DNA of 39,448 nucleotides from a virus (lineage: Duplodnaviria; Heunggongvirae; Uroviricota; Caudoviricetes), in the IMG/VR virus record IMGVR_UViG_2585427754_000011; one strand, written 5' to 3'. A program made the translations under genes and the position numbers. Within the stretch, counting starts at the first letter, position 1. Each line of letters begins with the position of its first letter. Positions 9,528 through 15,056 of the stretch are shown here, piece by piece. The notes beneath the pieces are model-generated. The model saw only the letters and a program-made list of their open reading frames with translations, made no database searches and was not told the DNA's origin.

Positions 9528-9619
9528 TTACGCTGGTTAACAATTCGTGCTCTTAATAATACCAAGTATATCAGGCTGATAAGCGTAAAAAAACGTTTTA
9601 CATCAGTAAGATTATTATA

Positions 9620-9639
9620 TACTGTAAATATAAACAGTG
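9620..9639. promoter_or_regulatory. LexA box (SOS operator)
   Basis: TACTGTAAATATAAACAGTG fits CTGT-N8-ACAG; overlaps a TATACT -10-like hexamer upstream of the tum-like ORF. Confidence 0.6.
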
Positions 9640-9680
9640 TTTATACATACAGCATTGCGTGTGGTGTCATAGGAGGAAAG

Positions 9681-9879: not shown

Positions 9880-10113
9880 ATGCGCATTGAAATAATGATC
9901 GATAAAGAGCAGAAGATTAGCCAGTCTACCCTGGACGCCCTTGAATCCGAGCTTTACCGCAATCTGCGCCCCCTGTATCCCAAAACGGTAATTCGTATCC
10001 GCAAAGGTAGCTCTAACGGTGTGGAACTTACCGGATTGCAACTGGACGAAGAAAGAAAACAAGTGATGAAAATTATGCAGAAGGTGTGGGAAGACGACAG
10101 CTGGCTGCATTAA
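9880..10113 (+). CDS. DinI-like protein
   Basis: MRIEIMIDKEQK...WEDDSWL resembles E. coli DinI (MRIEVTIAK...WESADDWF) as recalled; GAGGTGA RBS. Confidence 0.7.
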   Translation: MRIEIMIDKEQKISQSTLDALESELYRNLRPLYPKTVIRIRKGSSNGVELTGLQLDEERKQVMKIMQKVWEDDSWLH

Positions 10114-10121
10114 GAAACGTT

Positions 10122-10151
10122 GCCCCCAGGAGGATTCATTCTGATGGGGGC
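10122..10151 (+). terminator. Hairpin downstream of the dinI-like gene
   Basis: Perfect 7-bp stem gccccca / tgggggc with a 16-nt loop. Confidence 0.4.
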
Positions 10152-10200
10152 TAGTTTAGGAAACGAGGCGTAAGGTGGGCGACCATTTTGATAATTGATC

Positions 10201-10274
10201 GTCCGCTTTGTGCTGTGAGTTCAACCGATGGATAGGGTTGCATCGATCCGTTGAACTCACAGCCATAAGCGGAC
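10201..10274. repeat. Long imperfect palindrome (~29-nt arms)
   Basis: gtccgctttgtgctgtgagttcaaccgatgg ... atccgttgaactcacagccataagcggac; roughly 25 of 29 arm positions pair. Confidence 0.7.
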
Positions 10275-10432
10275 TTAAATATCATATATACTAATTTGCC
10301 TTCAGGAGAAGGTAGTGAAATCCATCCTGCCGGAAAATCGTTAACGGCCCAAGAAAGGGCCGCTTGCTTATCAAAAATGTATCTATTTCTTAAAAATACA
10401 TTGAATTTATGGAAGTTTCCACTCTCAACATT

Positions 10433-11383
10433 TTAAACTATACCAGCGAAAGAGGTGCTTTTTGCTGGGGCTATGGCATATGAGAATGTTATTTCATTAC
10501 GATCATCGGCATCGCGACTACGATAAAGACTACTTTCAAGTTTAACGGCCAAATAATAACCATTAATATTTTGAATAACTGCAATATCGCCAACTTCAAG
10601 CGATTCTGTATCTTCACTCTTGAAGAATGCTTCAGAATTGGCATCTGTGATTTGATTGAAATCGGTAATGCCTTTAGCAAATACTAAGGAATGGAGACTT
10701 GGCTGACGCTTGTAAATGTAGGCTTGATTACGTCCCCCAACTCCCCACTTTGTCTCAAAAAGCATTTCACCTGAGCCAACCCAATAAGAGTCATAATTTC
10801 CATTTGGCACAAATGTAACTTTGCCTGTGCTTGTGGGGGATTGGTTAGCCCCATCTGGTTGAGATAAATTGACAGGGTTGATCGGAGGCGGTTTTCGGTT
10901 AAATGGGCTAGGTCCAGCCGCTGGGCGTGGTTTCATTTTCTCACCGTGCAAATCATGGATCAGCTCTACATAACTATTCTCATAATCCACAGCATCGAAA
11001 GAAAGCCGAAGGCGCGCACCTACGAAGGTTGGAACTGGCTCAGATAATGAGTTATTAACAATTACAGGGATAACGCGATTACTATTCAATTCTCGCATTA
11101 TCTGACTGGAAATGATCATTTTCTCATAACCTACCCCCCCTGATTTTTGCATATTGGCTTTAGCTACATATGGTTCTGTACAAATGACAAGCACTCGGTC
11201 AGCGCTTGTAAGCCCTTGCTCCATGAAAAGAGTAAGATCACTTCCCAATGTAATATCCCATTGGTCTAAGATTACGTGAACTCCATTTTGTTCAAGCCGG
11301 GTCGCAAGCTTTAACACCCATGCTTTATGCTCTTCACTATCATGAGAATAAGAAATAAAAAGTTTAGGTTTAGTTAGTTCCAT
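10433..11383 (-). CDS. TIR-domain protein with unknown C-terminal domain (316 aa)
   Basis: N-terminus KLFISYSHDSEEHKAW...VLVICTEPY is TIR-like, including a candidate catalytic Glu; ~180-aa C-terminal region without recognisable motifs. ATG start; AT-rich. Confidence 0.75.
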   Translation of the reverse strand: MELTKPKLFISYSHDSEEHKAWVLKLATRLEQNGVHVILDQWDITLGSDLTLFMEQGLTSADRVLVICTEPYVAKANMQKSGGVGYEKMIISSQIMRELNSNRVIPVIVNNSLSEPVPTFVGARLRLSFDAVDYENSYVELIHDLHGEKMKPRPAAGPSPFNRKPPPINPVNLSQPDGANQSPTSTGKVTFVPNGNYDSYWVGSGEMLFETKWGVGGRNQAYIYKRQPSLHSLVFAKGITDFNQITDANSEAFFKSEDTESLEVGDIAVIQNINGYYLAVKLESSLYRSRDADDRNEITFSYAIAPAKSTSFAGIV

Positions 11384-11748
11384 AAAAATCCCATTGTTTT
11401 ATATATGCCATACGATTCATACGATGAATACTAAGTGAAATCTGTGATTTATCTCGAAACTATTAAATTATAATGAGTCTTTAATTTAAATTATTTACAA
11501 CATGCATCTGATTCTAGTTTAAGTAACCATTTCAAACGGAACCATTCTCTTGTAGGTAGTGTCCAGCAGTCGGTTTAGGTAAATTCAAAGCCAGCGTTTG
11601 CCCTTCGCTCACTGTGGACTTTCATCTTTGTAAAACCGTATGTTTCGTTTTTCAAGCGGTCATACAGATACGGATTTGCACTTCCCTTAGTAGTGCATGA
11701 CTATGCCGCATGAAATCGCATGATCGTTTGAGGATCATCTTTGCTGAG

Positions 11749-11776
11749 GCCCGCCAGAATTGGCGGGCTTTTGCTT
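11749..11776 (+). terminator. Rho-independent terminator-like hairpin
   Basis: gcccgcc-agaatt-ggcgggc followed by ttttgctt. Confidence 0.5.
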
Positions 11777-11817
11777 ATCTCATGCAGGTGCATGAAAACC
11801 ACTACATAAAGCGGGCA

Positions 11818-11836
11818 GGCGTGGCGGGGATACGAG
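11818..11836. other. Candidate cos site (cohesive-end sequence)
   Basis: ggcgtggcgggga tacgag cgcgcgctg resembles the P2/186 cos ends as I recall them (GGCGAGGCGGGGAAAGCAC / GGCGTGGCGGGGAAAGCAT); sits in a GC-richer ~350-bp segment between AT-rich cargo. Confidence 0.4.
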
Positions 11837-11944
11837 CGCGCGCTGTATGCCTGAAGTGGCTAAAATAGTATCTGTCATAGGTACAACTTAGTGTAGTATC
11901 ATCCATATAATCCATTGAAATATAATCGACTCTCATTAGAGGTG

Positions 11945-12943
11945 ATGATGAACGGAATCTGGTACGAAAACACTCATACACGCATTCCTAATTTTGAAAC
12001 AACAGTACATCAAAAGCACAAATTCGGTTACGCTTATGAAACAACAAGTCATTTTGTGCATCTGTATGGGCGTGACATGGGATTTAATGTAATATCAGTT
12101 GGGTTAACTGTTATTGAGCAACGAAGTGGAACTCTCAATGATTGGGTTCGGAGAGTATTTGGGGCTCAGAACATATCTCCTTTAGATAATGAAATTGGAC
12201 ATGTAACTAGGGGAGTGTGGCGGCCATCCTTATATTATGTCAATGATACAGAAACAGCATTAGGTATCGATGAGTTTGAAAAAAGAGCAACAGAGCAAGC
12301 TCTAAGAGTTTTGATAGAAAAACTCGATGATATTTTTCTATATGTAGAACCAAGTGCCCATGGTTTGATTTCTTACAGTCATAAATGTAGAGAGCTATTA
12401 ATTCTTGCTTGTACTGAGGTTGAAAATCAATGGGTGTCAATCATTGGTAATTCGAATTTATCTCGTTCAAATGGTCGATACTCCACAAATGATTATGTGA
12501 AATTATTAGATAAGTGTTATTTGTCTGAATATAAAATTCAATATTTGAATTATGACGGATTAAGGCATTTCAAACCTTTTGATGGGTGGAATGCAAGTAC
12601 CCCTACAACATCTTTGTCATGGTATAATGCATATAATAAAACTAAACATGATAGATCAGGAGCATTCCACTTTTCCACTTTAGAAAATGTAATGGATGCA
12701 GTTGCTGCTTGTGTTGTAATGTACTGTGTAAAATATGGCCCGTTTAGCTTATTGGAAGCCAATACGTCTCTATCAACGATCGTTAATCAAAACTTTTCAA
12801 TTTCATTAGATAATAGCAATCCAGCAAGTTATTACATTCCTGAAATTGAACTTCCACCGGATACAAGAACGGATTTATTAATTTATGATTGTTATCGAGA
12901 AAACCATAATAAAGCATGGGTCACTGATCCCCTAGTGCTCTAA
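11945..12943 (+). CDS. Hypothetical protein (~332 aa), possibly HEPN/Abi-like
   Basis: ORF-track start at 11915 is TTG; ATG at 11945 follows GAGG. A single Rx4H-like motif (RSGAFH) is the only hint of a HEPN fold. AT-rich. Confidence 0.5.
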   Translation: MMNGIWYENTHTRIPNFETTVHQKHKFGYAYETTSHFVHLYGRDMGFNVISVGLTVIEQRSGTLNDWVRRVFGAQNISPLDNEIGHVTRGVWRPSLYYVNDTETALGIDEFEKRATEQALRVLIEKLDDIFLYVEPSAHGLISYSHKCRELLILACTEVENQWVSIIGNSNLSRSNGRYSTNDYVKLLDKCYLSEYKIQYLNYDGLRHFKPFDGWNASTPTTSLSWYNAYNKTKHDRSGAFHFSTLENVMDAVAACVVMYCVKYGPFSLLEANTSLSTIVNQNFSISLDNSNPASYYIPEIELPPDTRTDLLIYDCYRENHNKAWVTDPLVL

Positions 12944-12999
12944 TTTCCTGCTAAAGGGAGCTTTTAATTATAAACGCTCCCTTCGGTTGTCGCTATTTA

Positions 13000-13626
13000 T
13001 TATATATCAATAGAGTTTTGAAATTTTAATAACTGCCATCTTGTTAATAGTGGTTTTATTGCTATGTTGTGTTGTGTATTTATTTTTAAACCTTCGAATT
13101 TCGAATATCCATTTTCCAAGGCTTCCACTGAAAAATGAATGGTTTTTGTTATCGGGTTTATAGCACAAAGATTTAGGTCATATAAAGTATGAATGTCACT
13201 TCTGAGCAATAATCCATTGCTAATATGATTGTGACTATCGTTTCGATATACATTAATGTGAGCAGCATCAAGAATATCAACAAGCTTACAGCCCGTAACC
13301 GCACAAGTAGGATTTGATTTTAATAGCTGGTCGCGAAATGTTTTTTGCCCACTTCGTTGTTTTATTTGCCGTTCTACAATTTGCCGTTGATCTTCACCCA
13401 TTAAAGTGGGGGTGTCTTTATCAGCTTCGCTGGCGTTGAGCTCCAGAATAATAGTATGTTGGGCGGTAAGCAAAGCAACAGCCCATTGATAGTTAACTTC
13501 TTGGATGGACATTTGCCCATTGTAGCGTGGAGTTTCATCTATAAGTTGTGACATTGTAATATTGGATAATTTACGGTACTGGTTGCCGCAGTATGCTATA
13601 AATTCTTTAGCTGGCTCAAAAACCAC
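13000..13626 (-). CDS. HNH endonuclease-domain protein (HNH_2-like)
   Basis: DAAHI...NGLLLRSDIHTLYD matches the HNH motif pattern. Annotated start is GTG; true start uncertain. Confidence 0.65.
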   Translation of the reverse strand: MVFEPAKEFIAYCGNQYRKLSNITMSQLIDETPRYNGQMSIQEVNYQWAVALLTAQHTIILELNASEADKDTPTLMGEDQRQIVERQIKQRSGQKTFRDQLLKSNPTCAVTGCKLVDILDAAHINVYRNDSHNHISNGLLLRSDIHTLYDLNLCAINPITKTIHFSVEALENGYSKFEGLKINTQHNIAIKPLLTRWQLLKFQNSIDI

Positions 13627-13673
13627 TCTGGGTTCATCAAATTCATGGCCATTATCACAACGCCACTCTGATT

Positions 13674-13967
13674 TTATAGTTTTCCTTTGAAGAATTTTTT
13701 TGCTTTGCAGTCTAGGTTAATACATTTGTTACGCTTCTTATTAATGCTCTGTGTTTCTAATTTTTCAATAACAGATATACCTAATATATTTTCTCTGTTG
13801 GTAATAATATCACCGTCTTTTACATTTTTGTGGTTCGCTACAAAACTGTCATAGCGATAGAAAACTGATGAGTCATCGGGATAACTATCATTTCCCCAGT
13901 ATCTAAGATCGTCTTTCTCAATTGCCTTAAAAAAAACCATACTTGCTGTACCATGAACTTTTCCCAC
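13674..13967 (-). CDS. Hypothetical small protein (~90-97 aa)
   Basis: ORF 48 bp upstream of the HNH gene in a different frame; GTG start with an internal ATG at 13940. Confidence 0.3.
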   Translation of the reverse strand: MGKVHGTASMVFFKAIEKDDLRYWGNDSYPDDSSVFYRYDSFVANHKNVKDGDIITNRENILGISVIEKLETQSINKKRNKCINLDCKAKKFFKGKL

Positions 13968-14024
13968 TAATCAAATTTTGGTTTGTTCTATCGAACAGCA
14001 AAGCATGTTGATTTACAAGAGAAA

Positions 14025-15056
14025 TCATCCCAAAGAATATGGCTCAAATCGCAAAATTTTTTGTTCTAACCAGTCATTTACTTCACGCATCCTTTTTTGC
14101 AACGGTAATAATTCATTTCGCACAAACACATTTGCCGCCTTCTCCACATCCCCAAACCCCCCAACATTGCTAGGCATTATCCCCATCATTTGTGGTGGCA
14201 CACGATGCGCTGCCATCATGTCATCCCGACTCACGTTCTTGATGTTAAGAAATTCATCCTTCGCTGCGACTTCTGATAGCGGGATAATCTGAAGCCCGTC
14301 CTTTTTGCCGTTAGGCGAGTACATAAACAGGTTACGAAAGTTACCAGGACCTTTGGCACTTTTCATCGCGTTGCGGAGGTTGTTCACATCCTCCTGGTTC
14401 TGCGCGGCGTCGGTCATGTACATGATGAAGCCTGCATGGCTGCCGTTAATGTAATACTTCCGGCGGAACAGCGTGGCGGACTCGTTGAGCAGGGCGGATG
14501 GAATGGCAGAAAGGTAACCTGGCAGACCATAAATCTCCTGGTTGATATCCGGCTCCATCAGGTGGAAGACGTTACCTTTTGTGAACTGATACGGCTGTGT
14601 CGTCAGGCTGTATTGCACAAACCAGTAGGTATCCAGGTCTAATCCGCGTCGGGTGTATTTTGCCAGAGCTGGCTCAAGGGCGATAACTTCACCGAAGCGG
14701 TTCGTGCGTTTCTCCAGGTAGGCGTTACCAAATACCAGATAGTCCTGCACAAAACGTGAAAAAGCCTGCTGGCTGAGCAGCGGGTGAGGGATGTAGGTAC
14801 TGGTCAGAATGTTGCACTTTACTGCAATCGGGGAACTGTGATGCACAGCAGCGCGGAAGGTGCGCGCCAGTCCGTCAAAGCTGACGGGAGGCTCATACCA
14901 GCGATCTGTCTGTACGCATTCCACATAGTCCAGCAGTTCGCGGCGGTCAAGTACTGGAATGGGATCACCGAAGCTGAATGCTTCGGCTGTAGTCTGGCTT
15001 TTATGCTGGATCTGGTTCGTCGACGCAGCGCGGTTCTTCTTACTCTTTCCCATCAA
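14025..15056 (-). CDS. Q: Portal protein (P2 gpQ type)
   Basis: 343 aa, same size and position as P2 Q; overlaps the start of the terminase ATPase gene. Confidence 0.85.
   Translation of the reverse strand: MMGKSKKNRAASTNQIQHKSQTTAEAFSFGDPIPVLDRRELLDYVECVQTDRWYEPPVSFDGLARTFRAAVHHSSPIAVKCNILTSTYIPHPLLSQQAFSRFVQDYLVFGNAYLEKRTNRFGEVIALEPALAKYTRRGLDLDTYWFVQYSLTTQPYQFTKGNVFHLMEPDINQEIYGLPGYLSAIPSALLNESATLFRRKYYINGSHAGFIMYMTDAAQNQEDVNNLRNAMKSAKGPGNFRNLFMYSPNGKKDGLQIIPLSEVAAKDEFLNIKNVSRDDMMAAHRVPPQMMGIMPSNVGGFGDVEKAANVFVRNELLPLQKRMREVNDWLEQKILRFEPYSLG

Follow-up and report, generated by a model that had tools for sequence, protein, structure and literature searches.

Nature of the Palindrome

Between a dinI-like gene and a TIR domain gene of a P2-like prophage lies a long imperfect palindrome, and the question that it raises is whether it represents a terminator, a structured RNA, a protein-binding site or a mark left at the edge of a block of exchangeable genes, all of which had been considered in an earlier note on this DNA. 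It occupies positions 10201-10274 of the window, by which is meant the whole 39,448-nucleotide stretch that was analyzed (IMG/VR record IMGVR_UViG_2585427754_000011), whose genes in this region (a gpA-like replication endonuclease, a DinI-like protein, portal and terminase) identify the prophage as P2-like. The dinI-like gene (9880-10113) precedes the palindrome and the TIR gene, which is on the opposite strand, follows it. The arms, estimated previously at ~29 nt with a loop of 13 nt, were measured as 33 nt each (10201-10233 and 10242-10274), with 28 of 33 positions (85%) complementary and 8 nt between them, which is close enough to the estimate. Folded as RNA, the 74 nt have energies of -46.6 kcal/mol on the + strand and -46.9 kcal/mol on the - strand, corresponding to z values of -8.78 and -9.81 against dinucleotide shuffles, so that the folding advantage on both strands is real; folded as DNA, the values are -28.5 kcal/mol and z -8.79, and in each of the three cases none of 200 shuffles equalled the palindrome.

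The palindrome was not called by the terminator scan because there is no T run on either side of the stem, which is followed by TTAAATATC on the + strand and GATCAATTATC on the - strand; this agrees with the earlier view that it is not needed as a terminator. The terminator hairpin assigned to the dinI-like gene was confirmed at 10122-10151. The one assigned to the TIR gene at ~10372-10400 held up less well; read from the sequence, 10376-10402 contains only a weak AT-rich hairpin, and the single GC-rich terminator-like hairpin between the palindrome and the TIR gene is at 10345-10362. A search of Rfam 15 found no family overlapping 10201-10274 even at E ≤ 10, and the permissive search gave chance-level matches elsewhere in the searched region only; with no Rfam match and an element that is a singleton, the proposal of a structured RNA has no support. 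A sub-threshold match to Fusobacteriales-1 at 9569-9673 (23.5 bits versus a gathering score of 52.1, E 1.7) is in an AT-rich spacer upstream of the small gene preceding dinI and is probably due to chance.

These results bear on the view that the whole 74 nt is a native phage hairpin, either a bidirectional transcription barrier separating the early operon from the convergent TIR gene or a structured RNA. The great stability of the predicted stem on both strands and its position between convergent genes would suit such a role, but the stem has no U/T tail and no Rfam counterpart and is not called as a terminator, both neighboring genes have hairpins of their own, relatives of the prophage have only a 24-bp core or other insertion sequence (IS) fragments at this place, and a mobile element on Klebsiella plasmids matches the inner arms with 96% identity; we consider this explanation very improbable. 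The phage database INPHARED contains nothing matching 10150-10320, and therefore classical P2, 186 and similar phages lack the segment. In our assessment the palindrome is, with high probability, the sum of two nested palindromes, the inverted repeats of an IS lying inside the split halves of a shorter palindrome, here designated P_L (Table 1).

Table 1. Positions in the window of the components of the palindrome and of the adjoining cassette
Feature	Position	Strand	Remarks
Left half of P_L, GTCCGCTTTGT	10201..10211		Kept after backbone motif TTTGATAAnTGATC in related P2-like prophages; PWM score 18.2 bits
Left copy of target duplication, GC	10212..10213		Same dinucleotide flanks both sides of full-length copies elsewhere
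Transposase-distal end (IRR), nt 1-20, TGTGAGTTCAACCGATGGAT	10214..10233	+	20/20 identical to L003
Transposase-proximal end (IRL), nt 1-32	10230..10261	-	30/32 identical to L003
Right copy of target duplication, GC	10262..10263		Same logic as for the left copy
Right half of P_L, CATAAGCGGAC	10264..10274		Excision of 10214-10263 restores GTCCGCTTTGTGCCATAAGCGGAC; PWM score 18.5 bits
Cassette between palindromes	10275..11595	-	One gene, TIR domain protein
TIR domain gene	10433-11383	-	Pfam TIR_2, E 3.4e-21
Decayed right-border palindrome P_R, GTTTGCCCTTCGCTCACTGTGGAC	11596..11619		Other P2-like prophages have aacGTCCGCTTTTCGCTCACAGCGGAG or the like at the aligned position

Inner Arms: Two Ends of an IS30 Family Element

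In blastn searches of plasmids, half of the palindrome matches sequences beside genes annotated as "IS30-like element ISCfr4 family transposase." The full element on Klebsiella pneumoniae plasmid NZ_CP082800 (L003) is bounded by the two arm sequences of the window, and direct blastn places IS positions 2-35 on window 10200-10233 with 97% identity and IS positions 1205-1248 on window 10230-10273 with 93% identity. The ORF of the plasmid element (2819-3979 on the - strand, 386 residues) matches the IS30 family transposase profile NCBIfam NF033563 (1e-85, 287.7 bits versus a cut-off of 80); it is missing from the window element, in which 48 bp separate the target duplications, and the 39-kb window contains no further IS30-like sequence. 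The distal end, TGTGAGTTCAACCGATGGAT, is homologous to the IS30 terminus TGTAGATTCAA annotated in Escherichia coli MG1655.

The limits of the IS were set through homology to IS30 and comparison of copies. Among copies that are at least 91% identical, about 15 of them full-length, the sequence inward of TGTGAG/TGTGAGTTCAAC is almost invariant and the outer 13-15 nt vary from copy to copy, with both outer flanks of the full-length copies ending in the same dinucleotide. IS30A of MG1655 is annotated as 1221 bp and starts with TGTAGATTCAATTGGTCAACGCAAC, the ISCfr4-type element starts with TGTGAGTTCAACGGGTCGATGCAAC, and the latter, when trimmed to TGTGAG, is exactly 1221 bp in length. The invariant interior, the alignment with IS30A and the common length therefore indicate that the IS spans TGTGAG...CTCACA and generates a 2-bp target duplication, which is a property of IS30 (PMC9333248). 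The flanking dinucleotides are mostly GC in the full-length copies (CG in L170 and AC in L166) and agree with one another in the window and in 12 of the 13 full-length copies that have both flanks, the exception being L173 with GT and GC. A different reading, in which the outer GTCCGCTTTGTG tips are part of the IS and the 24-bp relatives are "IS scars" of one ancient insertion, was rejected because near-identical copies differ in these tips, TGTGAG is the point at which the ends align with IS30 and the duplication is of 2 bp. A composite transposon (IS-cargo-IS) was also ruled out; the right border of the cassette has no IS sequence, only the palindrome P_R.

The parent element thus belongs to the IS30 family by its transposase profile, by terminal repeats of ~26 bp and a length of ~1.2 kb, and by its 2-bp duplication and preference for a palindromic hot spot, while the remnant, having no transposase of its own, is not an autonomous insertion sequence. 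Its two ends overlap in a 4-nt microhomology, GGAT (10230-10233), and since GGAT occurs at both deletion end points of the full-length element, it can be concluded that 1173 bp, including the transposase gene, were lost by microhomology deletion. The left inverted repeat of the remnant keeps 20 of ~25 nt. The suggestion of a protein-binding site proved apt, in that the element is made up of protein-recognition sequences, the inner 48 bp corresponding by homology to putative sites for an IS30 family transposase. An IS-end promoter was also sought, with one weak match (9/12), which is below the number found in shuffles.

The presence of one IRL and one IRR of an IS30 family element close together is also a feature of an active IR-IR junction, in which the ends of a circle or of a tandem dimer abut to form a reactive intermediate of transposition that is highly recombinogenic (PMC9333248). 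In a true junction, however, the tips abut, 2 bp apart, whereas here the tips TGTGAG and CTCACA point outwards to the halves of the target and IS interior lies between them; this orientation refutes the proposal, which has a negligible probability.

Outer Arms: A Palindromic Insertion Target

The empty site reconstructed by excision, GTCCGCTTTGTGCCATAAGCGGAC, is the same as unoccupied sites in other prophages at 23 of 24 positions (L123), 22 of 24 (L151) and 21 of 24 (L005), and is similar to that in L104. It should be noted that this is a direct comparison of strings, and that in a MAFFT alignment of occupied and empty sites the insertion did not appear as a single gap. The P2-like relatives that have the same backbone (...TTTGATAAnTGATC) and other cargo continue with GTCCGCTTTGTGCCAGAAGCGGAC in L123, ...GCGAAC in L151 and GTCCGCTTTGTGCTAGAAGCGGTC in L005, and the BL21 prophage has a more diverged version of P_L at the same place. 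When a position weight matrix (PWM) was derived from 28 flanks of other IS copies, which give a half-site consensus of aA(C/T)GTCCGCTT..GC, the two half-sites of the palindrome were its best two matches in the 39 kb (scores in Table 1), the next scoring 14.2 bits. The idea that the palindrome marks a cargo junction is correct with respect to its position, exactly at the junction, but only the outer 24 bp are common to relatives with other cargo. Likewise, when related junctions are checked for the element, the outer palindrome is present and the 74 nt as a whole are absent.

Other prophages have fragments of the same group of IS in P_L. In L002-type prophages (HEPN cargo), nt 1-37 of the distal end are kept; L105 and L205 (CDI-immunity/RNase A-like cargo) contain nt 1-25 of another IS variant, with TGATGGAC in place of CGATGGAT; and in L078 and L206 (DarTG cargo), nt 1-52 of the proximal end are present in the opposite orientation, the remainder of the IS having been removed by a deletion between copies of the 8-nt repeat GGACGTTG, one in the IS leader and the other in the P_L arm/cassette start. 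ISCfr4-type elements have thus entered P_L in either orientation and have decayed there to at least four distinct products, and insertion in both orientations into a palindromic target is what would be predicted for an IS30-type hot spot. No full-length IS copy was found at P_L in the P2-like prophages examined. We are confident that P_L is native to this P2-like lineage, in which a variable cassette lies downstream of the dinI-like gene and has P_L as its left edge.

Full-length copies of the IS are present in IMG/VR contigs L163 (2946-4183) and L165 (2933-4181), where they share a flank (aatcaaacac.tttgctaggtctgaCAGTCGGCTTAGTGC) and are in opposite orientations, which means that either the one site has been used repeatedly or the element has been inverted in place. 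In the E. coli chromosomes L087, L088 and L006, full-length or remnant ISCfr4-type copies, mostly pseudogenes, adjoin defense-like genes (a restriction endonuclease, an ATP-dependent nuclease, and a DEAD/DEAH helicase plus methyltransferase), which fits target palindromes that are cassette borders. A distant relative of the transposase (65% amino acid identity) is encoded in L168 (IMG/VR 3300009036_000417) ~2 kb from a P2-like portal gene, at the portal-proximal hotspot of another P2-like phage.

Origin of the Remnant

The composition of the palindrome, the IS termini, the 2-bp duplication, the GGAT junction and the empty site in relatives are direct observations, and their most satisfactory explanation, which we regard as very likely, is that the palindrome is a gutted remnant of an ISCfr4-type IS30 family element, produced by insertion into native P_L at the border of the cassette and subsequent internal deletion. 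The 1221-bp element would have transposed into the exact center of the 24-bp P_L, duplicating its central GC, presumably by the copy-out/paste-in route via a circle with abutted ends that is suggested by knowledge of IS30. A later internal deletion of 1173 bp between two GGAT tetranucleotides would have taken out the transposase gene, so that one terminal inverted repeat is now represented by 20 nt and the other by 32 nt. The order of these events, with insertion preceding deletion in place, is one that we infer.

[quoted passage not shown] The unit is non-coding, its 2-bp duplication is intact and both IS ends are present, and there are other two-ended miniatures of this IS group, in Citrobacter sp. 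OP27 (43 bp, L159), in a metagenome (L161) and in a Colwellia bin (L158). Such two-ended miniatures thus arise recurrently. However, the junctions of L158, L159 and L161 differ from that of the window, which is present only in the window's own contig and in a twin in E. coli ZYS9073, and other prophages show independent decay in place of the same IS at the same site. These statements are based on a search for closely spaced ends with a pattern that specifies no more than a 12-nt core at either end and accepts any interior, which was applied to IMG/VR, to one genome per GTDB species and to JGI metagenomes, and on a search for the 74-nt element in 5426 complete E. coli genomes. The end-pair matches comprise only the window's own contig, UViG_2778261093_000001, in IMG/VR, L158 and L159 in the GTDB species genomes and one relevant match, L161, in the JGI metagenomes; the 74-nt element is present in one of the 5426 E. 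coli genomes (ZYS9073). In its small size, its lack of coding sequence and its terminal inverted repeats with a target duplication the remnant resembles a MITE, but dispersed copies of the same miniature were not found in the E. coli genomes, GTDB species, IMG/VR or JGI metagenomes. Since the junction is unique to the prophage and its ZYS9073 twin, the remnant is a fossil and not a member of an amplified MITE family. We consequently regard arrival as a MITE as unlikely, and the 48-bp remnant is most likely an internally deleted single copy that was cut down in place.

The miniatures themselves are located at 6404-6473 in L159, 132-208 in L161 and 441-483 in L158. The junction in L159 uses a repeated GTTCAAC, and this Citrobacter copy adjoins an ORF with a TOPRIM/OLD-like motif.

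The remnant most likely has no function of its own today. It is non-autonomous and, as judged from its sequence, represents at most a pair of putative transposase-binding sites that a related transposase could use; in this regard, targeting of its own ends has been described for IS30 (PMC9333248). It may also add a hairpin, predicted from folding to be strong, between the convergent transcription units. It is an example of an already known kind of element, in itself an ordinary genomic fossil, and the interpretation given in the earlier note is on the whole partly supported.

P_L and P_R as Borders of Exchangeable Cassettes

The similarity of the window prophage to other prophages ends exactly at both edges of the cassette and, in other P2-like prophages, resumes at P_R. 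Among the 5426 complete E. coli genomes, the TIR cargo is found only in strain ZYS9073, whose prophage is also the single near-identical relative of the window prophage. The P_R of the window has decayed to the extent that its fold is no better than those of shuffles (z -0.03). In the commonest class of prophages with an identical DinI (L012, L017, L022 and others), the block matching window 10177-11689 is absent; the missing block consists of ~25 nt, P_L, the cassette, P_R and ~90 nt, and GAGGCGTTAGCTCT joins GTAGTGCATG directly.

P_L and P_R have a wide distribution. A 32-mer containing P_L occurs in 2718 of the 5426 E. coli genomes, at up to 4 places per genome, 181 of the places being on plasmids, and a scan of IMG/VR with an exact pattern gave 73 loci with P_L. 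The P_L loci represent 48 distinct combinations of backbone and cassette, with 32 left contexts and 42 cassette starts. P_R (GTCCGCT..TCGCTCA.AGCGGAC) has the same arms as P_L and a different center; the two share 8-bp arms, GTCCGCTT and AAGCGGAC, and their conserved 8-nt centers are TGTGCCAG in P_L and yTCGCTCA in P_R. P_L is often followed by GTT and P_R is often preceded by AAC. In 40 of the 76 loci that were oriented on P_L, P_R is found downstream in the same orientation at a distance of 0.4-4.1 kb, and it is never upstream save in junctions of the form "P_R - 15-18 nt - P_L," which suggest arrays. Loci with the pair include L207 (3501, 6546), L208 (3501, 5039), L123 and L210-L281.

In a lambdoid backbone that reads ...gcgtggtt immediately before P_L and tagaaggttagc... 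immediately after P_R, the two sites enclose unrelated cassettes of 1466, 1707, 3333 or 4108 bp. The 1466-bp cassette, which encodes a HAD hydrolase and a second ORF, is also present between P_L and P_R in the P2-like prophage L123, where the flanks have no relation to those of the lambdoid backbone. P_L in its right half and P_R in its left half change with the cassette; in its right half, P_R changes with the backbone, being CTCAAAGCGGAC in the lambdoid and CTCACAGCGGAG in the P2-like prophage for the same cassette. This pattern of variation places the exchange points inside the palindromes, near the central GC; in P_L, this GC is the dinucleotide that the IS duplicates. Cassettes bracketed by the pair occur in P2-like phages, lambdoid phages and plasmids, with cargo that includes TIR proteins, a retron-like reverse transcriptase, AbiEii, a cyclase with an AGS_C domain, a DarG-like Macro domain protein beside a shorter ORF, and proteins without a Pfam match. 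The Rac prophage of MG1655 has no P-type palindrome.

Based on these observations, it is possible, although we put it forward only tentatively and at less than even probability, that P_L and P_R are exchange sites for cassettes, mostly of anti-phage or toxin-antitoxin genes, among unrelated temperate phages and plasmids. If this were so, the cassette-side half of each site would travel with the cassette while the other half would stay with the backbone, exchange would be site-specific or hairpin-directed and performed by some enzyme, and the ISCfr4-type elements would be specialized parasites of the sites. The alternative is short-homology recombination through the 24-bp sites. Of 2146 genomes that have the lambdoid backbone, none showed a single-site "empty" state of the locus, where the shortest filler is ~215 nt, and this absence speaks against a circular cassette simply integrating at a single site; the remaining candidates are two-site exchange by a site-specific mechanism and exchange driven by short homology.

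No description of the P_L/P_R sites was found in the papers searched, and a search with the palindrome sequences gave one irrelevant match. Judging from its title, the paper of Nilsson et al. 2004 (Mol Biol Evol 21:1-13) appears to have put forward a recombination site in this region already, and part of the idea of exchange at P_L and P_R may already be present in that work. For the P2 hotspot, neither repeats nor IS are mentioned by Rousset et al. 2022, who leave the mechanism of exchange open, with only speculation on cos-proximal recombination (PMC9122126). Defense-gene swapping in phage hotspots is an acknowledged open question, which defined 24-bp sites at the break points would make directly testable. 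P_L may mark where phages exchange defense genes, and the pair of palindromes is a more interesting lead than the remnant.

Comparison with Known Systems

IS30 of E. coli K-12 is similar to the parent element in having homologous terminal repeats (the parent is identical to the IS30 IRL at 18 of 25 positions), a length of 1221 bp, a 2-bp target duplication and a nearly palindromic hot spot (PMC9333248). In contrast with IS30, only 48 bp are left here, without a transposase, and the target preferred by the ISCfr4-type subgroup is a specific palindrome, GTCCGCTT-N8-AAGCGGAC. The papers searched contain no description of this target, ISCfr4 being merely mentioned in papers on resistance plasmids. 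The present analysis provides an IS30 family element with a sharply defined 24-bp palindromic target, which, together with its partner site, brackets exchangeable defense cassettes in at least two unrelated phage families and in plasmids. For annotation, its value is that a long "mystery" palindrome at a prophage cargo junction can be read as two IS ends nested in a target palindrome.

Bacterial MITEs such as MITEAba12 are like the remnant in consisting of two IS terminal repeats with a target duplication, in having no coding sequence and in depending on a transposase acting in trans. The remnant differs from them in being single-copy and confined to one prophage lineage, with no sign of amplification and one truncated repeat, and its 48 bp are at or below the usual size range of MITEs.

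Insertion into inverted repeats has a precedent within the family, since IS1630, also of the IS30 family, targets inverted repeats. Outside it, IS1397 and ISKpn1, in BIME/REP sequences, and ISPpu9, in REP sequences (PMC12288879), likewise insert centrally in dispersed short palindromes (survey, PMC1525189). The target of the ISCfr4-type element is P_L/P_R rather than REP, however, and its sites border mobile gene cassettes of phages and plasmids.

With regard to the exchange of cassettes, P_L and P_R resemble the attC sites of integrons, which are also short imperfect palindromes that bound exchangeable gene cassettes, and the heterospecific lox and FRT sites used in engineered cassette exchange, where site types share their arms and differ, in lox, in the central 8 nt. 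An integron cassette has one attC of 57-141 bp with an R''-L''/L'-R' architecture, recognized by the IntI integrase, a description that P_L and P_R do not fit, being 22-24 bp long with two sites to each cassette. They also differ from integron, lox and FRT systems in that no dedicated recombinase has been identified for them and no single-site "empty" state has been found.

Other Segments of the Window Prophage

The window and the ZYS9073 prophage (L001) are 97% identical up to window position 11842 and again from the portal gene at 14137. The second variable region between these points (window 11843-14136, L001 7694-9788) has unrelated contents, with ORFs of 342 and 208 amino acids in the window and an AIPR family gene in L001, and looks like a recent swap of cargo beside the portal gene; no P-type palindromes are visible at its break points.

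Downstream of P_R in the window there are ~90 nt of conserved backbone (11620-11709), followed by a region with a conserved small ORF. The 90-nt segment contains GTTTCGTTTTTCAAGCGGTCAT, possibly a degenerate P_L, ~22 nt downstream of P_R, and the arrangement resembles the "P_R-spacer-P_L" junctions of arrays elsewhere. The conserved 52-amino acid "hypothetical" ORF at 11710-11868 holds a sequence with the textbook shape of an intrinsic terminator, GGCCCGCCAGAATTGGCGGGCTTTTGC, at ~11748-11774 on the + strand, and the conservation here may reflect a terminator of the early operon rather than a protein.
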